A program made the position numbers and the translations under genes. Positions 9,535 to 45,938 of a stretch of DNA of 64,000 nucleotides are shown here, in pieces. Origin of the DNA: Minisyncoccota bacterium (GTDB lineage Bacteria > Patescibacteriota > Minisyncoccia > Phycocordibacterales > UBA9973); contig JANOFO010000003.1 of the NCBI GenBank assembly GCA_031413715.1, forward strand, positions 11,047-75,046, in the 5' to 3' direction. Position 1 is the stretch's first letter; each line of letters begins with the position of its first letter. Below the pieces are notes generated by a model. The model was not told the origin of the DNA and did not search any database. It worked only from the letters and a program-made list of their open reading frames with translations.

Positions 9535-9617
9535 GCGTCGGTGGTGGAGTGGTCTAACACATCAGACTGTAAATCTGACGGCCTTGGCCTTCGTTGGTTC
9601 GAATCCAACCCGGCGCA
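9535..9617 (+). tRNA. tRNA-Tyr (anticodon GTA); long variable arm; CCA not encoded
   Basis: Acceptor stem gcgtcgg/ccggcgc with one G-U pair. Anticodon loop gaCTGTAAAtc. Long variable arm (cggccttggccttcg). T-arm gttggTTCGAATccaac. Discriminator A. Confidence 0.85.
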
Positions 9618-9621
9618 CTAG

Positions 9622-18164: not shown

Positions 18165-18239
18165 GGCGTGGTGGCGAAGTGGTAACGCTTCGGTCTGCAA
18201 AACCGACATGCGCGGGTTCAATTCCCGCCCACGCCTCCA
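18165..18239 (+). tRNA. tRNA-Cys (anticodon GCA); CCA encoded
   Basis: Acceptor stem ggcgtgg/ccacgcc. Anticodon loop tCTGCAAAa. T-arm gcgggTTCAATTcccgc. The sequence ends tCCA. Confidence 0.85.
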
Positions 18240-18384: not shown

Positions 18385-18471
18385 GCCGGGGTGGCGAAAT
18401 TGGTAGACGCACTGCTCTTAGGAAGCAGCGAGAGTAATCTCATGGAAGTTCAAGTCTTCTCCCCGGCACCA
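18385..18471 (+). tRNA. tRNA-Leu (anticodon TAG); long variable arm; CCA encoded
   Basis: Acceptor stem gccgggg/ccccggc. Anticodon stem-loop ctgctCTTAGGAagcag. Long variable arm. T-arm ggaagTTCAAGTcttct. The sequence ends aCCA. Confidence 0.85.
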
Positions 18472-29809: not shown

Positions 29810-31251
29810 TAATCTTTTCTCGCAAACAATGGCTCTTCTGGTTTCTTATTCTCTCGTATTAATTTTTTCAGCTTTTCATTCGTTTCTGGAAGTATCGGGT
29901 TGAGCATTCGTGCAATCTGGTAAAGACGAAGAATTAGATCCGTGATCAATATTTTACCTTTTTCTAAGTCAACTTTTACTACTTTAAATGGCTCAGTTTC
30001 CTGAATTGTTTTATCAAGTTCTCCGATTTCATTCCAGATATAATCGGTCACTTTCTTCAAATCATAGGTCTCAAACATTTTAAAATATTCTGCAAAATCA
30101 GATTTCTCTGGAATTTCTGGACATGCATCCAAGTATTTCTCGGAAAGCGTGAGTATACGGCTCGATAGGTTGCCTATCCCGTTTGCAAGACCTGAGTTAT
30201 ATGATTCCTTGAAGCGTTCCATTGTAAAAGGGCTGTCTTCGAATGCAGAGAGTTCCCGGAGGACAAAGTAGCGAAGTGCTTCTGTTCCATATTCTTTTAC
30301 CACATCATAAGGATTTACTACATTGCCAATTGATTTGGACATTTTTATCCCGCCATCGCCAGTGATAAATCCGTTGATGATTATTTGATTTGAGCAAGGC
30401 AAATCTGCAGCCATAAGCATCGCCTGCCACATAGCTGACTGCTGTCGGAGATTATCTTTACCACAGTATTGCGTTGGCATGCCATTAGCCCAGAACTTTT
30501 CAAAGCTCTCCATATCTTCGGGCCATCCAAGTGTAGATATATAGTTCACTAGAGCATCGAACCACACATACATAACATGGTCGTCATCACTTGGCACTGG
30601 TACGCCCCATGACATTTTTGATTTTAGGCGTGAGATGGAAAAATCTTCAAGTCCTGCTTGGACAAAAGTTTTGATTTCATGCAAACGAAAATCTGGCAAA
30701 ACAAATTTTGGATTGTTTTCATATAGATCAAGAAGTGGCTTTTGGAACGCTGAGAATTTGAAAAAGTAATTCTCTTCGTCTATCAACTCCACAGGTTTGC
30801 CAGGATGAATCGGGCATTCCCCTTTCTCATTGAGTTCTGAGTCAGTTTTTTCAAGCTCACAGCCTACACAGTACTTTGTCTGGTATGTTTTTTTGTATAT
30901 AAATCCGCGCTCATTGCAGCGATTCCAAAATTCTTGAGCAGCAGCTACATGGTGAGCATTGGTCGTACGTATAAAATGCACGTCATCTGATATGCCAAGT
31001 AAATCTTTCAACCCTCGAAAACGTTCCGCATAGCTATCTACATATGCTTGGACTTCTTTGCCTTCTGCCAAAGCTGCAGTGAGGAGTTTCTGTCCATGCT
31101 CATCCGTCCCCGTATTAAAAAAGACCTCGTAGCCTTCAAGCTTCCTTGCCCGAGCAATAACATCAGCACGAATTATTTCCATAGCGAAACCCACATGAGG
31201 ATCAGCATTCACATACGGCAATGTAGTAGTTATGTAGAAAGTCTTTGGCAT
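29809..31251 (-). CDS. metG: Methionyl-tRNA synthetase (short form)
   Basis: 480 aa. HVG motif (PYVNADPHVGFA), KMSKS (KMSKSIGNVVNP), CxxC knuckle (CVGCE...CPIH). Confidence 0.9.
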   Translation of the reverse strand: MPKTFYITTTLPYVNADPHVGFAMEIIRADVIARARKLEGYEVFFNTGTDEHGQKLLTAALAEGKEVQAYVDSYAERFRGLKDLLGISDDVHFIRTTNAHHVAAAQEFWNRCNERGFIYKKTYQTKYCVGCELEKTDSELNEKGECPIHPGKPVELIDEENYFFKFSAFQKPLLDLYENNPKFVLPDFRLHEIKTFVQAGLEDFSISRLKSKMSWGVPVPSDDDHVMYVWFDALVNYISTLGWPEDMESFEKFWANGMPTQYCGKDNLRQQSAMWQAMLMAADLPCSNQIIINGFITGDGGIKMSKSIGNVVNPYDVVKEYGTEALRYFVLRELSAFEDSPFTMERFKESYNSGLANGIGNLSSRILTLSEKYLDACPEIPEKSDFAEYFKMFETYDLKKVTDYIWNEIGELDKTIQETEPFKVVKVDLEKGKILITDLILRLYQIARMLNPILPETNEKLKKLIRENKKPEEPLFARKD

Positions 31252-31252
31252 A

Positions 31253-32317
31253 TTAATTAGCGAGAGCTACTTTCTTTTTCTCAAGATCATCTAGAAATTC
31301 AAGCAAGCAGACAGCGCAAGGAACAGCCAGTATCACGCCCCATAGTCCTGCCAAAGTCGCTCCTATTATCAATGACAATATAACCACCACCGGAGAGATG
31401 CCTGTGGCCTTTCGTATTATAAGAGGATAAATCAGATATGTTTCAAATTGACCAATGACGAAATACATAAGTAACGTAATGGCAGAAATCGTAACACCTC
31501 CATCAAGATAAGCAAAGATAGTGCCCGGTATTGCAGCCAAGATTAATCCGAAAGGAATTAGTTCAGCTACAACAACCAAAAGTGCCAAAACTAGTGAGTA
31601 CTTTACGCCGATGATAGTGAGTCCGAGATACGTGAGCACGCCTACAATCACGCCCATCAGCATCTGACCCTGCATCCAAAGACCGATCTTACGTTCAGTA
31701 CGCTGCCAGAGTCCGATGATATATTCTTCATTTGCTTTAGGTGTAATGATTCGTAAAAATCCTTCAATACCATGCTCTGTAACTGAAAGATAGAAGGATA
31801 TAACAATAATCAAAATAAAATTGAGTATACCATCGAATGCTTGTCCAAATATATTAAAGAATCCTCCAGAGAGACTTGATGCCAAATCCTGAGTACTCTT
31901 TATAACATCTGGAAGAGACGCATTATGAGAAATATTCGTGACAATACCTTGAGCGCCTGAAATAGTATCAGGCTGGAATGTATTTAAAATGCTACTAGTT
32001 GGAATATACTGCGCAAGCTGAGTAACGAGTAATGACATTTCCTGGATAAAGACTGGCACAAATACAGACATCAGGCCTATGATGATCAAAAATGAGAATA
32101 GGTATAGTAAGAATACTGCAAGAGTCCTGTTCTTTACATACTTTTTCATTTTATGAACAGCAAATCCTATAAAGGAAGCGATAACTATAGAAGTGAGTAT
32201 TATAAGGATAATATTCGTAAGCTTCATGAGCGCCACAAATACGATCCCAAATAAAATAACCCTGATAATAGTTCCGTTTGATATAGAGATCTGGATAGAT
32301 TTAGTAGGTGACTCCAT
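31253..32317 (-). CDS. AI-2E family (PerM/UPF0118) transporter
   Basis: 354 aa, eight TM helices. Signature region (LALLVVVAELIPFGLILAAIPGTIFAY). Confidence 0.75.
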   Translation of the reverse strand: MESPTKSIQISISNGTIIRVILFGIVFVALMKLTNIILIILTSIVIASFIGFAVHKMKKYVKNRTLAVFLLYLFSFLIIIGLMSVFVPVFIQEMSLLVTQLAQYIPTSSILNTFQPDTISGAQGIVTNISHNASLPDVIKSTQDLASSLSGGFFNIFGQAFDGILNFILIIVISFYLSVTEHGIEGFLRIITPKANEEYIIGLWQRTERKIGLWMQGQMLMGVIVGVLTYLGLTIIGVKYSLVLALLVVVAELIPFGLILAAIPGTIFAYLDGGVTISAITLLMYFVIGQFETYLIYPLIIRKATGISPVVVILSLIIGATLAGLWGVILAVPCAVCLLEFLDDLEKKKVALAN

Positions 32318-37995: not shown

Positions 37996-38430
37996 CTATT
38001 TATTATCCGAAGTTAAAATTTCCTTACCATTTGGTCCTGCCCAGTCAGTATATCGCCACCACGTCGGATTAAAGATAAAGAATACAAATTTCGGATCTAG
38101 AGATTTTTCCTTTTTGTTAGGAAATTTACCAAAGTAAATAGCATCAAACAGTTCCTTTTCTTCTTCCGTAATTAGCCGCGCCTCCCCGTCAATCTGAAGC
38201 GTTTTCATATCACTTTCACTTGAACCTATAACAAAAGAGGCTCTTGTCATATTTTTCCCAAAAAGCGGTTCAGCTTTTCTATACTCTCGATACGTTTCAA
38301 AGTAAAACTGAAGCGGATCCTCTGTATTTGCAAAATGCACTGTCGCAGCATGAGGTGAACCATCAAGCATTTCAACTGCAAGGACGCCAACTCTTTGACT
38401 ATTTATATAATCAAGAATCTTCTGATCCAT
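37996..38430 (-). CDS. Pyridoxamine 5'-phosphate oxidase-like FMN-binding split-barrel protein
   Basis: 144 aa. ..QRVGVLAVEMLDGSPHAATVHFA.. is typical of the PNPOx-like family. Confidence 0.55.
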   Translation of the reverse strand: MDQKILDYINSQRVGVLAVEMLDGSPHAATVHFANTEDPLQFYFETYREYRKAEPLFGKNMTRASFVIGSSESDMKTLQIDGEARLITEEEKELFDAIYFGKFPNKKEKSLDPKFVFFIFNPTWWRYTDWAGPNGKEILTSDNK

Positions 38431-38435
38431 ATTAT

Positions 38436-39077
38436 TTAGATTTCTTCTTCTTTCCCTATTTCCAAAATCTTGAATTCAATATTGTTCTTTTCTAAAAATC
38501 CTCCGGGAATTTTTCTGATAAAGCCGTCTCTCTTTATATTCCAGTCGTGCACAGGAAAAGTTACTCGAGGTTTTATCGCGATCGCATAATCGATTGAATC
38601 TTTGATTCGCAACCAAGGACCAAGTACGGGAAGCGCCAGAATGTCGACAGGTTTTCCCGGATTGGTAAATGAATCTCCCGGATAAAATAGATCTTTGCCG
38701 ATAAAGTAGCCAGTATTCTGAACCTGGCCGAAGTCTTCATAGATCTCTGCATGCTTATCACCACGGGCTTCGAGATATACACCAGCAAATTCACCAATAC
38801 CCCCATCTTCTAGGATTTGGTGTGGAATGCCAGACTCACCAAGAATCTTGCCGACAGAACTATTAGTAACCACAATAGCAGCTGGATTATTAAGGAGTAC
38901 ATTTTTAAGTGATTCAATGTGTAAATGATCATTATGCTCATGAGTAATAACCACAAGATCAATATTTTTTTCTTCTTCTTGTCCTTCTATTGTGTATTCG
39001 CCCGGGTCAGTTAGGACTCGTTTATTGCCAATAGTTATAACTAGGCAGCAGTGGCCTATCTTCTTGATCTTCATCAT
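38436..39077 (-). CDS. MBL-fold metallo-hydrolase
   Basis: 213 aa. HxHxDH motif (VITHEHNDHL). Confidence 0.75.
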   Translation of the reverse strand: MMKIKKIGHCCLVITIGNKRVLTDPGEYTIEGQEEEKNIDLVVITHEHNDHLHIESLKNVLLNNPAAIVVTNSSVGKILGESGIPHQILEDGGIGEFAGVYLEARGDKHAEIYEDFGQVQNTGYFIGKDLFYPGDSFTNPGKPVDILALPVLGPWLRIKDSIDYAIAIKPRVTFPVHDWNIKRDGFIRKIPGGFLEKNNIEFKILEIGKEEEI

Positions 39078-39078
39078 C

Positions 39079-39540
39079 CTATTTTACCACATTTTTTGAT
39101 TCGTACTCATCTAAGTATTTTTGAGCTTGTTTGAGGGTTTGTATTCGGCCCTCCTTTTTAAATACGAATGTATTTCGAGCTTCCTCGTACGTAGCCCATT
39201 TGTAGTCGAGTATTTCCCCTTCTTGGATTTTCACAGTCTTATCTTTTACAATTCCCACAAAATATTTACAGATTTTATCGATTGTTTGTCCGTTCTTTAC
39301 AATCTCATAGCGTTCGTCTATAAGAGGAGCATCCAATAACTCTATATCAGCGATCCCAGTCTCTTCCACGAGCTCTCGCATAGCAATCACAAGGGGGTCT
39401 GTTTCCCCTTCTTCTCTTTTACCTTTAGGATAGCTCCAATTTTGATACTTTTCATCTTGAAAAAGAATGAGATATTTGTACTCTCCGTCTTCCTTAAATA
39501 CTGTTACTACTCCATAAGCCATGTGTTCAATATCGGCCAT
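39079..39540 (-). CDS. NUDIX hydrolase
   Basis: 153 aa. Nudix box (GKREEGETDPLVIAMRELVEETGI). Confidence 0.8.
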   Translation of the reverse strand: MADIEHMAYGVVTVFKEDGEYKYLILFQDEKYQNWSYPKGKREEGETDPLVIAMRELVEETGIADIELLDAPLIDERYEIVKNGQTIDKICKYFVGIVKDKTVKIQEGEILDYKWATYEEARNTFVFKKEGRIQTLKQAQKYLDEYESKNVVK

Positions 39541-39541
39541 A

Positions 39542-42500
39542 TTATTTTATATTTATCTTAAATACTAACTCATCAATATTTACTTCAGTTCCTTCATTCT
39601 CAGCGATTTTAATTTGCTTTGCACCCACGGTTTTTAGGAGTTCAACTTTAAATTTATTTATTATTTCTTGGCCATCTGTGTTAGTCGCAACTTCAAGCAC
39701 TACCACATCGCCAGGACTGAGTCCCTGTGCTTTACGCATGTCTTGAATCGCTCGGACAAGCTCGCGATACTGGCCTTCCTGCTTGAGCTCGGGAGTCATG
39801 TTTATATCAAGCTCTACCATAGATTCAATTGAATCATCCGCGCCAATCTCTTTTACATTCAATTCATCTTTAAGGATTTCAATATATTCTTCCTTGAGAT
39901 CTAGATTCTTGACTTTCAGCTGCCAGAGTGGCTGTCTGACTTTTATTCCCGCTTTCTGACGAGCTTCCAATCCTTGCGTGACTATTGATCGGACAGTCTC
40001 CATTTTGGAAAGCAAGTCATTATCAGCTTCGCTTCCTTTCGGCCACGAAGCAAGATGAACGCTTAATTCGTCTGCCTCACTTTTTAATTTCTGCCAAACA
40101 TCTTCTGCTGAAAAAGGCGCGAGCGGGGCTAGGAGCTTGGCTATCTCTTTGAGGGTAAAGTAGAGCGTCTGAAGCGCTTCGGTATCGTGATCCTTTATGC
40201 GGTCGCGAGAACGGCGCACATACCACGTAGAAAGATCGTCGATGAATTCACGGATCGCACGCGTTGGCTCGAGAAGCTTGTAGCTGTCCAAATTCTGAGT
40301 CACAGTATTCACCAGTCGATTGAGTTTAGCGATTATCCATTGATCGAGGATATTGCCTGAAGTCTTCTTCTCAACTTTCTCTAAATCCGTGTCTCTATAC
40401 AATTCATAGAACGCGAGCACATTGTAGAGCAAGTTGAATACTTTATTGTGGAGCTCAGCAACTGTCTTCTCGTCGAAGTTCTTTGATTCACCTGGCTGAT
40501 TGACCGAGTACATCCAGAGGCGGAGAGTGTCGACGCCATATTTTTCGATCATCACCCACGGATCAACAATGTTGCCGAGAGATTTTGACATCTTTTTGCC
40601 TTTCTCATCGAGAATATGCCCGAGGCAGATGACATTCTTGTATGCGCGGCCTCTGCCCATGAGCACTCCAACAGCATGGAGAGTGTAAAACCATCCGCGA
40701 GTCTGATCGATAGCTTCAGATATGTAATCGGCCGGGAAGCCTGTGCCATCTACCCATTCTTTATTCTCAAATGGATAGTGATCCTGAGCAAATGGCATAG
40801 CGCCCGAATCAAACCAGACATCCATAACTTCTTTGACCCGAGTTATTTCTTGCCCATCTTCGGACACGAGCTTTATCTGATCTATGTATGGTCGGTGAAG
40901 ATCGAGTTCGTATTCTTCGTTGTGAGGGACAGGCACGAAAGGCAGCGCACGTACTTCAGCATTCATAAATCTCTTGAAATCAGGAACAAAGACATGCGTA
41001 CCAGCCACCTGATATTCTTTGTTGTCCGGCATGAATAGTCCCGAATTCACATAGCATGCCCATGCCGGACCGCCGTGAGTGATGATCAATATATTCTTAT
41101 CTTTATATGTTTCCTCAAGTTCATACAGGACCTCAGCCGTTCTCTTTTGAACATCTTTGAGTGATTCCCCGCCTCCGATCTTCTCTGTGAACCATTTTAG
41201 TCCTGTGTTCGTATATACATATTTGTGGTATGTATTCCAATCCTTATTATCAAAATCACCAGGGTTTATTTCCTGCAATCGCGGATCATATTTGATAGCA
41301 TCAAGTGACATACTCAAAGTTTCTGCCACAAGATCCGCAGTTTCTTTCGTACGAGTAAAGGGAGACGAAACGATGATATCAATATTGTTAGCTTTGAGCA
41401 GAGAAGCCTGCCTTCTCACTTCTTCTTTTCCTTCTGGAGTCAGATTATCAGTCGCCTGGTTTTTATAGCTCACTAATTCATGCAAGTTACCTTCCGTACC
41501 GCCATGGCGCATGACAAAATATTTGTTGCCGGACTTCTTGGTCTTTTTTTTCATTTCCTCAAGACTGCCGATGACTTCAAGCGTGCCATCTGCCGTCTGC
41601 CATATCGGAAGCGGTGTACCCCAGTAGCGCTCGCGTGATATTGCCCAATCTTTTATATCCTTGAGCCATTCACCGAAACGCCCGTCACGGATATGTGCTG
41701 GCTCCCAATTAATTTCTTTATTCTGATCTATTAACTGCTTTTTGATCTTCTCATCAGACATGCGGATGTACCATGAATCGCGCGCATAGTAGATAAGCGG
41801 GGTCTTACATCGCCAGCAATGAGGGTATGAGTGCTCATATTTTTCCTTTTTGAAAAGCAATCCTCGATGAGCCAAGTCTTTGATAATATCCACTGCAACT
41901 TCTTCATCCTTGACGAATCTACCTTCTAGGAAATCTGTGCCCTTAACAAAATGACCTGTATCATCTACTGTATGGAATTTGGGAAGTCCAACTTTTGTGC
42001 CAAGCTCAAAGTCTTCCTGACCATACATAACCGCAGTATGAACAATGCCGCTACCATCAGTCGTCGTTACGAAATCAGCAGTATAAACTTTGTATGCGTT
42101 CTGTAATTTTTCATCGCCTTTATTAAGCTCCCCAAGATATGGATACAGAGGCTCATATTCGAGGCCAATAAGTTCATTTCCTATAATATCATTATGTACA
42201 ATTTCGATTTTTTGATCTTTAAAAAGTTCAGGAACTCTTGCGGTTGCAACAACATACAACTCTTGTACTCCTTCAACACGCAGAGCTGTGTAAGAAATAT
42301 CCTTACCAACCGCCAAAGCAACATTACCTAGAAGTGTCCAAGGGGTTGTTGTCCAAGCTATGAGATAAACAGTGTCCTTTGTCTCGTTACCCTTGCCCCA
42401 TTTCTGTCCCGGCTTTAAATGAAATTTCGCATATACTGACAGATCCTTGTCATCTTGGTATCCTTGCGCAAGTTCATGTGACGAAAGAGCCGTCCCACAG

Positions 42501-43057
42501 CGTGGACACCAAGGCAAGACCTTGTAGTCCTTATAGAGCAACTTCTGCTCGTTTACTTTCTTTACAACATTCCATACTGACTCTATATATGTATTGTTAT
42601 ATGTGATGTATGGATTATCTTTATCTACCCAATACCCTACTCGATCACGAAATGTATACCAAAGATCAATATATCTCCAAACGCTTTCGCGACATTTCTG
42701 ATTAAATTTAGCAATGCCATATTCTTCTATATCTTTTTTTGATGTAAGGCCAAGTTCTTTTTCTACTTGAAGTTCAACTGGAAGACCATGCGTATCCCAA
42801 CCGCCTTTTCGGCCCACATGATATCCTTGCATCGTCTTGTATCTCGGAATAGCATCTTTGAAAGATTGAGGCTCTAAATGGTGTATTCCTGGCTTGCCAT
42901 TGGCTGTCGGCGGGCCATCGTAAAAAACAAACTCTCCTTTCGGCGAATCCTTCGCGAGTGTCTTCTGGAAAATACTATTCTCTTTCCAGAATTCTAAGAT
43001 TTTCTCTTCTCGGAGCGCAGCTTCTGATTTCTTGTTTTGTATTTCTTTATCTTCCAT
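39542..43057 (-). CDS. ileS: Isoleucyl-tRNA synthetase containing an inserted histidine-phosphatase (phosphoglycerate-mutase family) domain (~aa 505-715)
   Basis: 1171 aa in a single ORF. IleRS blocks: HIGH-type motif (PTANGKPGIHH), editing/CP1 region, WCWRCKTP, KMSKS (KMSKSLGNIVDP), C-terminal anticodon-binding and junction domains. Between ..ISRERYWGTPLPIWQTADGTLEVIGSLEEM and ..LDLHRPYIDQIKL...DVWFDSG lies a ~210-aa segment with the three PGAM hallmarks: FVMRHGGTEGN, SSPFTRTKETA and LIITHGGPAW. Confidence 0.9.
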   Translation of the reverse strand: MEDKEIQNKKSEAALREEKILEFWKENSIFQKTLAKDSPKGEFVFYDGPPTANGKPGIHHLEPQSFKDAIPRYKTMQGYHVGRKGGWDTHGLPVELQVEKELGLTSKKDIEEYGIAKFNQKCRESVWRYIDLWYTFRDRVGYWVDKDNPYITYNNTYIESVWNVVKKVNEQKLLYKDYKVLPWCPRCGTALSSHELAQGYQDDKDLSVYAKFHLKPGQKWGKGNETKDTVYLIAWTTTPWTLLGNVALAVGKDISYTALRVEGVQELYVVATARVPELFKDQKIEIVHNDIIGNELIGLEYEPLYPYLGELNKGDEKLQNAYKVYTADFVTTTDGSGIVHTAVMYGQEDFELGTKVGLPKFHTVDDTGHFVKGTDFLEGRFVKDEEVAVDIIKDLAHRGLLFKKEKYEHSYPHCWRCKTPLIYYARDSWYIRMSDEKIKKQLIDQNKEINWEPAHIRDGRFGEWLKDIKDWAISRERYWGTPLPIWQTADGTLEVIGSLEEMKKKTKKSGNKYFVMRHGGTEGNLHELVSYKNQATDNLTPEGKEEVRRQASLLKANNIDIIVSSPFTRTKETADLVAETLSMSLDAIKYDPRLQEINPGDFDNKDWNTYHKYVYTNTGLKWFTEKIGGGESLKDVQKRTAEVLYELEETYKDKNILIITHGGPAWACYVNSGLFMPDNKEYQVAGTHVFVPDFKRFMNAEVRALPFVPVPHNEEYELDLHRPYIDQIKLVSEDGQEITRVKEVMDVWFDSGAMPFAQDHYPFENKEWVDGTGFPADYISEAIDQTRGWFYTLHAVGVLMGRGRAYKNVICLGHILDEKGKKMSKSLGNIVDPWVMIEKYGVDTLRLWMYSVNQPGESKNFDEKTVAELHNKVFNLLYNVLAFYELYRDTDLEKVEKKTSGNILDQWIIAKLNRLVNTVTQNLDSYKLLEPTRAIREFIDDLSTWYVRRSRDRIKDHDTEALQTLYFTLKEIAKLLAPLAPFSAEDVWQKLKSEADELSVHLASWPKGSEADNDLLSKMETVRSIVTQGLEARQKAGIKVRQPLWQLKVKNLDLKEEYIEILKDELNVKEIGADDSIESMVELDINMTPELKQEGQYRELVRAIQDMRKAQGLSPGDVVVLEVATNTDGQEIINKFKVELLKTVGAKQIKIAENEGTEVNIDELVFKINIK

Positions 43058-43314: not shown

Positions 43315-44055
43315 TTAGATAATACTTCCAACCTTAAGACCAAGCTTGTCGCTTGCTGATTCATTTTGGACTATGATCTCAAGGAAGCGCTTTTCTCCGA
43401 AACCAGAACTCCCTCGAGTCAATGCAGGCTTGCCGTCTTTTGGAACATCAGCTAGGCGCTCGTAAAATTCGAGATCCTTCATGAAATGACTTTCATTCTC
43501 GATAAGGGTTGTCTTGCAGTTGCCGAAGTTATCTACCCTCCATACGAAGTTTTTTTCTCCGAAATCTTCGACATCTACTTCTTTTGCAGGTACATCTTCT
43601 CCTTCGCTAAGCCATTTGGCAAGATACGGTAGGTACTCAAAGCTTCTAAATTGTGAATTGGAAATCCGCAAGGCTTCATCGTGATCGAGAAACTTACTGC
43701 ATACTTCAAACACATCTGTTTCATAAACCTTGGAGAATAGCCCGAGCTTCTTGGCAAGAGGAAAGCAATTCGGCGTTCCTAGTATCAGCAATTTCCCGAG
43801 TCTGCAAAAGCAAAATGGAATACCATTTAGGTACTTTTCCTTATTGCCACGCAAGGCAACATTGATGGAAATAATGCCAGGTGCATCCTTGTAGGCATCG
43901 ATTGTATCGATAAGATCACCCTGAGCCTTTAGGCTCGATTCTACTCCGCAAAAGTTGGTGGAAATATTTTCAAGAAGACCATGGTAACGTGCTACTTGGC
44001 GCGTGCGGGCATTGTCGTCGAGGCAGTCATTGATGATTGTGACAAGTTGTGACAT
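43315..44055 (-). CDS. Hypothetical protein, possibly a divergent DUF62 / SAM hydroxide adenosyltransferase (SalL/FlA-like)
   Basis: 246 aa. C-terminal VWRVDNFGNCKTTLIENE resembles the DUF62 C-terminal ID.FGN..TN motif. A mid-region TPNCFPLAKKL weakly resembles RDIFAPVAAHL. The N-terminal motif is poorly conserved. This is weak, memory-based similarity. Confidence 0.35.
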   Translation of the reverse strand: MSQLVTIINDCLDDNARTRQVARYHGLLENISTNFCGVESSLKAQGDLIDTIDAYKDAPGIISINVALRGNKEKYLNGIPFCFCRLGKLLILGTPNCFPLAKKLGLFSKVYETDVFEVCSKFLDHDEALRISNSQFRSFEYLPYLAKWLSEGEDVPAKEVDVEDFGEKNFVWRVDNFGNCKTTLIENESHFMKDLEFYERLADVPKDGKPALTRGSSGFGEKRFLEIIVQNESASDKLGLKVGSII

Positions 44056-44243: not shown

Positions 44244-45938
44244 TTACATCTTTTCTGGAGTTTTGATACCTAGGAGGTAGAGGCCATTTTTCATAGTTTG
44301 ATGAAATGCCTCTACGAGAGCGATGCGGTATGGGGCATGCGGATCATTTTTATTTATAATCTGAGTATTCGCATAGAAAGAATTAAAAGCACTAGCGAGT
44401 TCGGTAAGATACGTCGCGATGTGATGAGGCTCAAGCGCTTCGTATGAACGCACCACAATTTCAGGGAATTGATAAAGAATATGTTCTAGATTCGTGACTT
44501 CATTTGGTACATCTTTATATCCTAGAGAAAGGTCTTCTTGTTCTGCTTTTTTAAGCAGTGCATTTGCGCGAACAGCAGTGTATTGCAGATATGGGCCAGA
44601 GTCCCCTTCAAATGAGATAGATTTCTCAAAGTCATATACGATGTCGCCAGTCAGTGAAGAGCGAAGAATGGAATATTTCACCGCAGAGACTCCAACTTCT
44701 TCACTGATAGATTTCTTTTCTTCATTGGAGAATTCGCGATCTTTAACCTTCTCACCGACCACATCCATAGAATCCCGAATCAATGATTCTCCTGTTATGA
44801 CATTGCCTTTTCGAGAAGACATCTTGCCAGAAGCAAACTTCATCATGCCATGAGTCACATGCTTCATACGCTTCTCATAATCTGGATGGATCAATGACAC
44901 AGCTTTCTGCACTACTTTCATATATTCGCCTTGCTCAATAGCCGTAACGATAATAGATAGATCAGGGTCTTCTTTGCCAAACTTGGTCATCATCAATCCT
45001 ATTTCTTTTGTCTCATAGAGAGGAATACCTAGCGATGTAATGAAAACTCTGGTGTGCAGTTTCGGATCATACTTTTCGGCATGGAACACTATTGCGCCAT
45101 CGGATTCTTCAAAAACCTTTCCAAGATTCTCTTGTACGATCTTCTGACCAATTGGAGCCATTTCAGACTCAAAGAAATAATAATTAAATTTTGTACCAAG
45201 AAGAGAATATATTTCTTCAAATGCATCGAGGGTGACTTGTCTGCCCCAATCATATATTGTATTTATATCCTCATCACTTCTATCATAGACTTTTTTATTT
45301 ATAACATCGATTTCTTTCTTTATATTTTCATCCTCATCTGCTTTTGTGCTTGCTTTGGCATACTGCTCGCCGATCCATAAAGCTCCCTTTCCTTCGTACG
45401 ATTCACCAGAGTTAATAATGCCATAGATAGCTTTAGCGACATGAGGTCCGACATCACCTTGATAGTTTGCGCGGATAGTATGAGCCCCAGAGTATTCCAT
45501 GATGCGAGCGATGGATTCCCCTATAGCATTTGTCATCAAGTGGCCGATATGAAACGGCTTGAAAGGATTGGGATCAGTGTATTCCACCATAATTTTCTTA
45601 CATTTTACACGCTCATTTTTACCCCAATCTTCTTTTTGCTTTAAAATATCTTTTACTGCATCAGCAAAAAATTCTCGAGAGAGATAGAAATTGATAAATC
45701 CTGGTCCAGCGATTTCGATCTTAGCGATTTCCTTCGGTAAATTACTTTCAAGTTCACTTTTGATCTTTTCAGCAAGCTCGCGCGGATTACTCCCTGCAAC
45801 TTTAGCGTAAGCAAGCGCAACATTCGTAGAATAATCTCCATTGATAATTTCAGCTGGATGTTCAAGAATTATATCTTCGGCATCAATTCCAAGATTTTTC
45901 AGCGCTATCTTAATTTGTTCTTTTAATTTTTCCTGCAT
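44244..45938 (-). CDS. argS: Arginyl-tRNA synthetase
   Basis: 564 aa. N-terminal Arg_tRNA_synt_N, class I HIGH variant (..PNPFKPFHIGHL..), C-terminal DALR anticodon-binding region. Confidence 0.9.
   Translation of the reverse strand: MQEKLKEQIKIALKNLGIDAEDIILEHPAEIINGDYSTNVALAYAKVAGSNPRELAEKIKSELESNLPKEIAKIEIAGPGFINFYLSREFFADAVKDILKQKEDWGKNERVKCKKIMVEYTDPNPFKPFHIGHLMTNAIGESIARIMEYSGAHTIRANYQGDVGPHVAKAIYGIINSGESYEGKGALWIGEQYAKASTKADEDENIKKEIDVINKKVYDRSDEDINTIYDWGRQVTLDAFEEIYSLLGTKFNYYFFESEMAPIGQKIVQENLGKVFEESDGAIVFHAEKYDPKLHTRVFITSLGIPLYETKEIGLMMTKFGKEDPDLSIIVTAIEQGEYMKVVQKAVSLIHPDYEKRMKHVTHGMMKFASGKMSSRKGNVITGESLIRDSMDVVGEKVKDREFSNEEKKSISEEVGVSAVKYSILRSSLTGDIVYDFEKSISFEGDSGPYLQYTAVRANALLKKAEQEDLSLGYKDVPNEVTNLEHILYQFPEIVVRSYEALEPHHIATYLTELASAFNSFYANTQIINKNDPHAPYRIALVEAFHQTMKNGLYLLGIKTPEKM

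Follow-up and report, generated by a model that had tools for sequence, protein, structure and literature searches.

The window, by which we mean the whole 64-kb stretch of DNA analyzed, carries on its minus strand, as do all features described here, a single uninterrupted ORF (39542..43057, stop codon at 39542-39544) encoding a 1171-aa type-2 isoleucyl-tRNA synthetase (IleRS) with a nested domain. The product scored 880.2 bits against the ileS model TIGR00392 (cutoff 621.4) and matched the Pfam families tRNA-synt_1, Anticodon_1 (PF08264, residues 905-1043), and DUF5915 (PF19302, residues 1048-1170). Its best PDB relatives are P. megaterium IleRS2 (8c8w) and the T. thermophilus enzyme (1ile). 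Residues 1-508 (41534..43057) comprise the N-terminal half of the Rossmann fold, the CP core, the CP1 editing domain, CP2, and the start of CP3, and align with residues 13-482 of 1ile and 5-475 of 8c8w. The remainder of CP3 (LDLHRPYID...DVWFDSG), the C-terminal half of the Rossmann fold, and the anticodon-binding and IleRS2-type C-terminal domains lie in residues 718-1171 (39545..40906), which align with 488-821 of 1ile and 480-891 of 8c8w. The class-I signature, G57-I58-H59-H60 (42878..42889), is by sequence a noncanonical GxHH in place of HxGH and is at least 90% conserved among 60 orthologues; GxHH has been tied to the mupirocin hyper-resistance of IleRS2, in which the G/AxHH variant is tolerated (Brkic et al. 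2023). KMSKS (residues 822-826, 40580-40594) is invariant in the orthologue alignment. The CP1 editing motifs WTTTPWT (235-241) and GSGIVH (335-340) are present and both conserved, and the CP1 region matches the isolated editing-domain structures 1wk8 and 1wny. The equivalog score, class-I signatures, CP1 editing domain, and anticodon and IleRS2-type C-terminal domains are thus all those of a type-2 IleRS, and no second ileS was found within the 64-kb window. As judged from sequence, the gene is the housekeeping type-2 IleRS of Paceibacteria/Minisyncoccia-type Patescibacteria, and its product is predicted to be active in aminoacylation.

The flanking genes were compared across the best 80 GTDB loci. 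Upstream of ileS lies argS (44244..45938), and an ArgRS homologue occupies this position in 59 of the 80; the conserved argS-ileS synteny indicates a chromosomal housekeeping locus. A NUDIX hydrolase gene (39079..39540; PF00293, E = 5.6e-15) begins 1 nt past the ileS stop. Its product reached no NCBIfam cutoff, the best match being MutT1-like at 35.7 bits. A NUDIX gene follows ileS at only 7 of the 80 loci, so it is not an obligatory partner; the slot varies in content, with the arrangement ileS-[HAD/MBL/HD/NUDIX/Ser_hydrolase]-recO and a median gap of 4 nt, seen in Paceibacteria and also in the metagenome contig L081.

A Nested Histidine Phosphatase Domain in the CP3 Loop

Residues 509-717 (~209 aa; 40907..41533) form a nested His_Phos_1 domain, whose bounds were set by aligning the protein with the solved structures of IleRS and include a return linker at approximately 672-717. 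The PF00300 (His_Phos_1) match covers residues 514-669 (E = 1.5e-29; 103.5 bits against a cutoff of 21.7) and cuts the tRNA-synt_1 match in two. The original prediction, made from the sequence, was that a complete histidine phosphatase domain lies in-line in ileS. The PF00300 result, far beyond chance, and the 880-bit TIGR00392 score bear this out; the span it gave, 40910-41551 (residues 503-716), is replaced by the alignment-based bounds. The insertion point is a surface loop of CP3, equal to residues 482-488 of the T. thermophilus enzyme and 475-480 of P. megaterium IleRS2, where solved IleRS structures have a loop of 4-5 residues and the window protein has 209. Within the Rossmann fold, CP3 is a peripheral subdomain whose structure varies (PMC7191050, PMC7955072). 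The structure alignment thus places the insertion in a peripheral loop and not, as the original prediction had it, in the catalytic core itself. At the junctions the sequence is KK|SGNKY and EEYE|LDLH, within the stretches …KSGNKYFVMR… and …VPHNEEYELDLHR…, and are conserved in relatives as SGNKY... and ...PHNE.YELDLHRPYID.

The three motifs on which the prediction was founded are all there. The RHG motif (residues 517-519, 41501..41509), with R517 and the nucleophile H518, is invariant in alignments of 60, 65, and 76 sequences. Also invariant are R569 (41351..41353), the phosphate-pocket arginine of the SSPFTRTKET block, and H661 (41075..41077), the second catalytic histidine, in the ITHGG block. 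E596 (41270..41272), the putative general acid of the RLQE block, is invariant in alignment A1 and at least 90% conserved in alignment A2. Profile score, catalytic core, and α/β fold all assign the insert to branch 1 of the histidine phosphatases. Modelled in isolation, it reached a pLDDT of 93.6; in the full-length model it is the best-modelled part, and the entire chain is one continuous protein. The insert is accordingly modelled as an autonomously folding histidine phosphatase resembling PhoE, PspA, and GpgP. Between close pairs carrying the same insert type, dN/dS was 0.04-0.21 for the insert and 0.04-0.10 for the host, and the insert evolves ~2-fold faster than the host; these ratios point to purifying selection on the insert. 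Both the IleRS and the phosphatase retain full sets of catalytic residues, and the nested phosphatase is apparently active.

The closest folds are compact phosphomonoesterases, namely PspA (4ij5), GpgP (6s2q, 4pz9), PhoE (1h2e), HFP (9mmh), and CobC (6e4b); these are free-standing proteins, and the insert is only 20-24% identical to them. The protein phosphatases SixA, PGAM5, and Sts are also among the fold matches. Assignment as a dPGM mutase was rejected on scores (NF038349, 54.8 versus a cutoff of 225; PRK01295, 28.5 versus 316; GpmB PRK03482, 45.5 versus 261) and on fold comparison, in which dPGM structures rank below the compact phosphatases. The earlier "PGAM/mutase" label is too specific, given the phosphomonoesterase neighbors and the missed subfamily cutoffs. 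Cutoffs were likewise missed for CobC (TIGR03162, 81.4 versus 162.9), PspA (NF045917, 53.3 versus 350), and SixA (TIGR00249, 31.6 versus 74.5). The insert reaches no NCBIfam subfamily cutoff, and therefore no substrate can be transferred to it. In the histidine phosphatase superfamily, the substrate class is not readable from sequence. Neither the insert nor the whole IleRS matched a PADLOC-DB defense model at E ≤ 0.01.

An assembly or annotation artefact (a chimeric assembly or a frameshifted gene pair) or a removable element (an intein or intron) could also place a foreign domain in this gene, and in one metagenome contig, L081, the gene is called as four separate ORFs. The junctions are, however, frame-identical in more than 200 independent sequences. 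Among GTDB species representatives, the best 80 genomes, all of Paceibacteria/Nomurabacteria type, have them in-frame, and ~65 of these 80 loci have uninterrupted ORFs of at least 1100 aa. The insert is likewise present in every one of the top 120 full-length database matches, which stem from independent assemblies at NCBI, JGI, ENA, and Logan. Base composition is uniform (GC 0.426 in the insert and 0.429 in the rest of the gene; GC3 0.416 and 0.417), and dN/dS is well under 1. The window protein has no Hint, intein, or homing-endonuclease Pfam match and no HN[CST] motif, and its junctions are conserved as ordinary protein, in agreement with the original view that the segment is not an intein. 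The probability of an artefact or removable element is virtually nil, and this explanation is refuted for practical purposes. Recent horizontal acquisition in this genome was also rejected, the compositional signal being absent.

Distribution and Apparent Exchange of Inserted Domains

The IleRS-His_Phos architecture is common to at least 80 related species and is lineage-wide. IleRSs of related CPR classes contain one to four His_Phos domains at three IleRS sites; in the Gracilibacteria/Peregrinibacteria group, the phosphatase often lies after KMSKS or between DxWFDSG and KMSKS. Fourteen His_Phos copies were located in multi-copy relatives, 12 with RHG and 2 with RHA. These copies are only ~25-37% identical to one another, and recent intragenic duplication was rejected as their origin. 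Other domains inserted in related IleRSs include GNAT, a P-loop kinase (AAA_33/Zeta_toxin-like), Ser_hydrolase, a DUF559 nuclease, and an IS200-type transposase, and one IleRS (P0447) has a HAD phosphatase at site B without His_Phos. Among the 150 nearest 50%-cluster representatives of the insert, IleRS is the sole multidomain host; free-standing homologues are ~200 aa long and 33-41% identical. A single ancient insertion followed by strict codivergence is not supported, with a Mantel r of only 0.32 and insert types forming a mosaic over host clusters. In the pair L052/L078, the hosts are 88% identical and the inserts 46%, with a sharp-edged mosaic and raised dS. This mosaic of insert types, set against the host sequences, looks like exchange of inserts by cassette replacement.

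Possible Functions of the Nested Phosphatase

The most likely target of the insert is a small compound of nucleotide type, linked to the activity of IleRS, from which it would remove phosphate; we place middling confidence in this reading, which is drawn from comparative sequence data. By family chemistry, it would act as a phosphomonoesterase through a phospho-His518 intermediate, with R517, R569, and H661 holding the phosphate and E596 giving the proton. Candidate substrates are adenine-nucleotide by-products or the breakdown products of dinucleoside polyphosphates, with pyrophosphate cleavage perhaps provided by neighboring NUDIX or HD enzymes, and comparative anatomy suggests that selection keeps the physical tether to IleRS. 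Coupling is favored because diverged His_Phos domains occur at three IleRS sites, in one to four copies, across CPR lineages; because no other multidomain host was found among the 150 nearest cluster representatives; because one IleRS has a HAD phosphatase at site B; and because interchangeable phosphohydrolases (HAD, HD, NUDIX, MBL) fill the slot 3' of ileS in Paceibacteria. Several observations count against it. CP3 is not named as a tRNA- or ligand-contacting part in the IleRS literature searched. IleRS scaffolds also host unrelated domains and so may simply tolerate insertions, the swapping of insert types between close hosts (L052/L078) argues against a finely co-adapted interface, and insertion at three different sites is hard to square with a fixed geometry for channelling. 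The existence of free-standing ~200-aa homologues and the presence of a NUDIX neighbor at only 7 of 80 loci also speak against coupling.

Coupling to IleRS-linked nucleotide chemistry is only slightly more likely than a passenger enzyme, that is, an active but unrelated housekeeping phosphatase (phosphoserine, sugar-phosphate, or nucleotide-salvage) lodged in a permissive loop of a gene that is essential and steadily expressed within a tiny genome, with the fusion serving coexpression alone. The nearest structures are indeed small-metabolite phosphatases (PspA, GpgP, PhoE, the riboflavin-pathway HFP, and CobC), and the 64-kb window contains no further His_Phos gene. A passenger would also suit a peripheral and variable CP3, the many unrelated domains accepted by related IleRSs, cassettes swapped regardless of host sequence, and an adjoining slot holding assorted house-cleaning hydrolases. 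Read-through fusions would, however, be terminal, whereas these domains are nested at three internal sites, and the nearest phosphatase relatives are fused to IleRS only. Convenience of expression hardly explains up to four diverged copies in one IleRS, all with RHG, or the nonhomologous HAD phosphatase at site B in another. Taken by itself, the passenger explanation is possible but somewhat unlikely.

Nuclease and pyrophosphokinase toxins that hit acceptor ends exist, as do HipA-type kinases that act on synthetases. The phosphatase might accordingly be a repair or immunity module acting on tRNA-Ile or on IleRS itself, either stripping a 3'-terminal (or 2') phosphate left by a toxin from the acceptor end or undoing HipA-type phosphorylation of the synthetase. 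IleRS would supply the tRNA-binding platform, and the phosphatase together with kinase, GNAT, and SR1 NUDIX domains recalls the enzyme sets that heal RNA ends. A module driven by conflict would fit both the cassette-like replacement of the insert and its ~2-fold faster evolution, the GxHH hyper-resistance motif shows that the host enzyme has been under attack, and the fold matches to SixA, PGAM5, and Sts are to protein phosphatases. This module is nevertheless rather improbable: there was no PADLOC defense-model match, contact between CP3 and tRNA is not reported in the IleRS literature searched, and there is no reason for tRNA-Ile alone to need repair. A broader form, also a long shot, treats CPR IleRS as a modular scaffold whose exchangeable enzyme cassettes would act on what the synthetase holds, in repair or immunity, with swapping reflecting an arms race. 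The cassettes would be the phosphatase here and kinase, acetyltransferase, Nudix, serine-hydrolase, and HAD domains in sister lineages; the phosphatase would serve to heal or deprotect either the acceptor end of tRNA-Ile or IleRS itself after toxin action, or else to inactivate adenylate-mimicking inhibitors. Least probable among these functional readings, and very doubtful, is a fold kept without turnover, whether for sensing a ligand, for docking, or for an allosteric or structural role in IleRS. It would accord with the 2 of 14 copies that have RHA rather than RHG, with the role of CP3 as a protein-protein docking surface in human IARS1, and with a study of mycobacterial MutT1 in which the RHG domain was dispensable for the activities assayed. 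Pseudoenzymes normally lose catalytic residues, yet R517, H518, R569, E596, H661, and N524 are invariant or nearly so down to ~26-30% identity, while the surface diverges freely.

Discussion

Few enzymes are as conserved as the aminoacyl-tRNA synthetases, and to our knowledge it is very unusual for a bacterial synthetase to have the catalytic domain of another enzyme class nested in its own. Here, much of the Patescibacteria has a nested phosphatase as a fixed feature, in minimal genomes where each retained domain likely counts. If it is coupled to IleRS chemistry or tRNA-Ile, it would represent a new link from translation to phosphate or nucleotide metabolism or to RNA repair; a passenger would show minimal genomes packing enzymes into essential genes. 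Cassette-like replacement within an essential gene would be an unusual evolutionary pattern. As rare genomic changes, the differences in insertion site, of which there are three, and in the number of copies can serve as markers for phylogeny within the CPR. The IleRS-phosphatase is also a tractable target, being one polypeptide for which point mutants such as H518A are obvious and the solved structures show where a deletion could be made cleanly.

Class Ia synthetases and eukaryotic synthetases also have extra domains, which lie within the Rossmann-fold catalytic domain or are attached to it. Among these, the CP1 editing domain is universal and works on the synthetase's own product, mischarged tRNA; unlike CP1, the inserted phosphatase is lineage-restricted and has no known role in aminoacylation. 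The solved IleRS2 structures (8c8u, 8c8v, 8c8w) and 1ile agree with the window protein in the order of their domains, in having an IleRS2-type C-terminal domain, and in the GxHH variant. The window protein matches IleRS2 with a phmmer E of 1e-228 and a Foldseek TM-score on target of 0.73-0.87; it lacks the Zn-knuckle cysteines that the T. thermophilus enzyme has in CP3.

Hundreds of IleRS-phosphatase proteins are present in public databases under plain IleRS names. The belief that such a fusion was undescribed proved nearly correct: literature searches on IleRS or other synthetases with a histidine phosphatase or CPR fusion found nothing past one sentence on SR1 (Absconditabacteria) IleRS, which describes the protein as divided into four regions by two PGAM domains and one Nudix domain (Kantor et al. 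2013, mBio, PMC3812714) and comes without mapping, conservation analysis, or function. Recent papers on IleRS evolution and resistance do not mention the phosphatase or Patescibacteria. The SR1 protein is, like that of the window, a CPR IleRS interrupted in-frame by His_Phos domains; the window IleRS differs in having a single His_Phos at CP3 and NUDIX as a separate downstream gene. In-frame accessory enzyme domains, in many cases including His_Phos, are also found in the decorated IleRSs of Gracilibacteria/Peregrinibacteria (NF040702, ileS_w_GNAT), where the phosphatase is often at sites other than CP3. The window IleRS is distinct from this group, scoring 338 bits against a cutoff of 1999 and having no acetyltransferase Pfam match. 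Mycobacterial MutT1 (3fjy, 9cxx) joins a NUDIX and an RHG histidine phosphatase in one two-domain protein, and this pairing of NUDIX with His_Phos is common to MutT1 and the window locus.

Identity and position of the domain nested in IleRS

The ileS gene (39542-43057, minus strand) is a single uninterrupted ORF of 1171 codons whose product was identified as an isoleucyl-tRNA synthetase (IleRS) by TIGR00392 (880 bits vs. a cutoff of 621). The enzyme is type 2, with P. megaterium IleRS2 and T. thermophilus IleRS as top PDB sequence matches (E ~1e-228), and KMSKS is retained, as are the motifs of the editing domain, the anticodon-binding domain, and the C-terminal domain. At the class-I HIGH signature the sequence is G-I-H-H (GxHH; residues 57-60; 42878-42889, minus strand), a form at least 90% conserved among 60 CPR IleRS orthologues; the non-canonical GxHH motif gives IleRS2 mupirocin hyper-resistance (Brkic et al. 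2023). The argS-ileS synteny was kept in 59 of 80 loci and no second ileS was found in the 64-kb window, both consistent with a housekeeping ileS.

His_Phos_1 (PF00300) matched residues 514-669 (Pfam, E = 1.5e-29), splitting the tRNA-synt_1 match in two. With a score far beyond chance and all of the quoted motifs present, the original prediction of an ileS carrying an in-line histidine-phosphatase domain was borne out. It had placed the insertion at 40910-41551, equivalent to IleRS residues 503-716; alignment to solved IleRS structures assigned ~209 residues to the nested domain (509-717; 40907-41533, minus strand). Residue by residue, positions 508 and 718 correspond to T. thermophilus 482 and 488, and the insertion point is flanked in P. 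megaterium IleRS2 by 475 and 480. The insert therefore takes the place of a 4-5-residue loop inside CP3, the small subdomain that lies between the WxISRxRxWG linker and DxWFDSG. Among IleRS in databases, the spacing between the host motifs on either side of the insertion falls into two clearly separate modes (55-83 or 250-299 residues). In published IleRS structures, CP3 lies apart from the Rossmann core and varies across species (PMC7191050, PMC7955072), and in human IARS1 it serves protein docking (PMC13439101). Because the loop belongs to CP3, insertion "into the catalytic core" was too strong a description; the phosphatase lies within the catalytic domain but outside the core itself, and is accurately described as nested in one of that domain's peripheral subdomains. 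In T. thermophilus CP3, four cysteines form a Zn knuckle (CQAC...CAC); the window IleRS has QTADG...SEDGQ in their place (residues ~486-492 and ~731-737; ~41570-41600 and ~40850-40880, minus strand). The cysteines are retained (CVSC...CECGG) in orthologues such as those from L052 and L078, two related ileS loci from other genomes.

In alignments of 60, 65, and 76 sequences, with insert identity down to ~26-30%, R517, H518, R569, and H661 were invariant and E596 and N524 were at least 90% conserved. Close pairs of the same insert type gave dN/dS values of 0.04-0.21 for the insert vs. 0.04-0.10 for the host (the remaining IleRS). The insert was the best-predicted region of the full-length AlphaFold model (pLDDT 80, pTM 0.70) and, modeled alone, reached pLDDT 93.6 and pTM 0.91. 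Taken together, the comparisons show a polypeptide of two predicted enzymes, with both catalytic sets intact and under purifying selection. No NCBIfam subfamily model reached its cutoff on the insert, so it is best called a histidine phosphatase without assigned specificity; of the proposed "phosphatase/mutase-type" label, "phosphatase" stands and "mutase" does not.

Distribution of the architecture

A 301-residue query across both junctions recovered, by the dozen, metagenomic IleRS fragments in which PF00133 and PF00300 occur together. In the best 80 GTDB species-representative genomes the match spanned both junctions in one frame, and ~65 of these loci hold an ORF that runs unbroken for 1100 residues or more. 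All 120 of the top-ranking full-length proteins in the databases (1118-1270 aa, at 61-100% identity) had both domains, and one of them is identical to the window IleRS and encoded on a 143-kb contig. Named carriers included Paceibacteria/Paceibacterota, Nomurabacteria, Parcubacteria, Minisyncoccia, and "Patescibacteria group." An assembly artefact is for practical purposes ruled out by the in-frame junctions, by these 120 proteins, and by the base composition of the insert, which is that of the remaining gene. Pfam and motif searches of the window IleRS gave no Hint or intein signature, in agreement with the prediction that the insert is not an intein. In one JGI metagenome contig (L081:219-3563), an insert-bearing ileS was called as four ORFs (a tRNA-synt_1 fragment, a 187-aa "PhoE," a second tRNA-synt_1 fragment, and Anticodon_1 with DUF5915), followed by GNAT, HAD, ASCH, and Ser_hydrolase genes; the break could come from frameshifts or errors in sequencing, or the gene could be a pseudogene or truly split.

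When the insert alone was searched exhaustively with phmmer against 1.84 billion cluster representatives, 527 hits had E ≤ 1e-10. Roughly two-thirds of the best 150 were IleRS (full-length or fragments), with the domain almost always at the same CP3 site; the remainder were free-standing proteins of ~130-400 residues with 33-41% identity, and no host protein other than IleRS was found among these 150. Residues 514-663 also matched phrog_12933 (PHROGs, E = 3e-23), a phage family of unknown function; phages therefore encode His_Phos relatives too.

Additional insertion sites emerged when the RHG motif was placed relative to host motifs in IleRS named Gracilibacteria, Peregrinibacteria, or Peribacteria. 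The motif lay only at site A (CP3) in 36 proteins, only at site B (between DxWFDSG and KMSKS) in 5, and only at site C (past KMSKS, ahead of the anticodon-binding domain) in 41; it occupied B and C in 7, A and C in 2, all three in 3, and no site in 15. IleRS with one to four His_Phos domains occur in these groups, among database proteins P0245, P0305, P0348, P0372, P0373, and P0387-P0502. Where two, three, or four domains share an IleRS, the copies are just ~25-37% identical, and recent duplication was rejected on that basis; RHG was kept in 12 of 14 located copies, the other 2 having RHA. Further in-frame domains in the same groups were GNAT, an AAA_33/Zeta_toxin-like P-loop kinase, and Ser_hydrolase, and P0447 carries a HAD phosphatase at site B without His_Phos. 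DUF559/REase nuclease and IS200-type Y1 transposase domains both occur within the editing-domain region of some of these IleRS. NCBIfam already models GNAT-containing IleRS.

Evolution of the insert

The insert has evolved ~1.9 times faster than its host (mean pairwise identity 46% vs. 66%), and the two sets of distances are weakly correlated (Mantel r = 0.32, reached by 0 of 999 permutations). Insert types are mosaic across host clusters, with the window's type in nine clusters and six types in one tight cluster. The L052/L078 hosts are 88% identical and their inserts 46%; the flanks, ~150 residues on each side, share 83-100% identity vs. 26-50% for residues ~526-690. The edges of this mosaic are sharp and fall at conserved junction sequences (residues about 511-700, window numbering), and both dN and dS are raised in the insert (dS 1.16 vs. 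0.70). Given these edges, the raised dS, and the mosaic of types, the pattern looks like the outcome of recombination via the conserved junction sequences that replaced one phosphatase cassette with another.

Gene neighborhood

In the window, a NUDIX gene begins 1 nt past the ileS stop and is followed by genes for an MBL-fold hydrolase and a PNPOx-like protein (37996-39540, minus strand; Pfam). The two ORFs 3' of ileS were surveyed in 70 Paceibacteria loci (138 ORFs), the first lying a median of 4 nt from ileS. RecO accounted for 36 ORFs, DUF11 for 16, HAD for 13, MBL for 10, HD for 9, NUDIX for 7, and Ser_hydrolase for 6. The order is therefore ileS, a variable small-hydrolase slot with many phosphohydrolases, then recO, the slot usually starting a few nucleotides past ileS. 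HAD, Ser_hydrolase, and NUDIX are also known as in-frame IleRS inserts elsewhere. A 246-aa ORF between argS and ileS (43315-44055, minus strand) gave a sub-threshold SAM_HAT_C match (23.6 vs. 25.5 bits), no NCBIfam hit, and no BLAST homologue (E ≤ 1e-5) in any of 80 loci. A second class-I synthetase-like ORF, far shorter than ileS (29812-31266, minus strand), matched the IleRS body weakly (phmmer, E = 1e-11) and is presumably another class-I aaRS. The window contains plus-strand genes for tRNA-Tyr-GTA (9535-9618), tRNA-Cys-GCA (18165-18239), and tRNA-Leu-TAG (18385-18471), and no tRNA-Ile gene was found in its 64 kb.

Possible functions

By the established chemistry of the superfamily, the insert would hydrolyze phosphomonoesters via phospho-His518, with the phosphate held by R517, R569, and H661 and E596 acting as the acid; residue conservation makes a non-catalytic role of the phosphatase fold unlikely. 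Comparative anatomy suggests that the tether to IleRS may itself be under selection, because His_Phos domains occur at three sites and in multiple diverged copies, IleRS is the only multidomain host among the best 150 matches, site B of one IleRS is filled by a non-homologous HAD phosphatase, and phosphohydrolase genes are packed against ileS. The reading we prefer, and to which we would give about an even chance, is a nucleotide-type house-cleaning phosphatase beside IleRS and adjacent NUDIX, HD, or HAD enzymes. That the phosphatase is purely a passenger is nearly as likely, if itself somewhat doubtful; it would fit the peripheral position of CP3, the many unrelated inserts that IleRS tolerates, and the free swapping of cassettes. 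The most interesting possibility, a repair or immunity role directed at tRNA or IleRS, is suggested by the domains that accompany it (kinase, GNAT, NUDIX) and by the cassette dynamics, but no PADLOC model matches and we consider it improbable. The nested-phosphatase IleRS is directly testable.

Comparison with known systems

Synthetases in which an accessory domain is nested are a known kind and not categorically new, and public-database records of this architecture go back at least to 2015-era CPR genomes (P0218). Our literature search found no paper that maps, analyzes, or tests nested-phosphatase IleRS, the SR1 enzyme, a more elaborate version, having been mentioned once, in 2013. A synthetase specialist would still be surprised by the class of enzyme inserted, its lineage-wide fixation, its recurrence at three sites, and its cassette behavior. 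Pairing of NUDIX with an RHG phosphatase exists outside CPR IleRS in mycobacterial MutT1; the RHG domain there is described as of unknown activity (PMC11784022), so MutT1 serves as an analogy without pointing to a function. The 2013 mention is a single sentence reporting an SR1 IleRS split by one Nudix and two phosphoglycerate-mutase domains (Kantor et al. 2013), which agrees with the domain-decorated CPR IleRS described here and is greatly extended by them.
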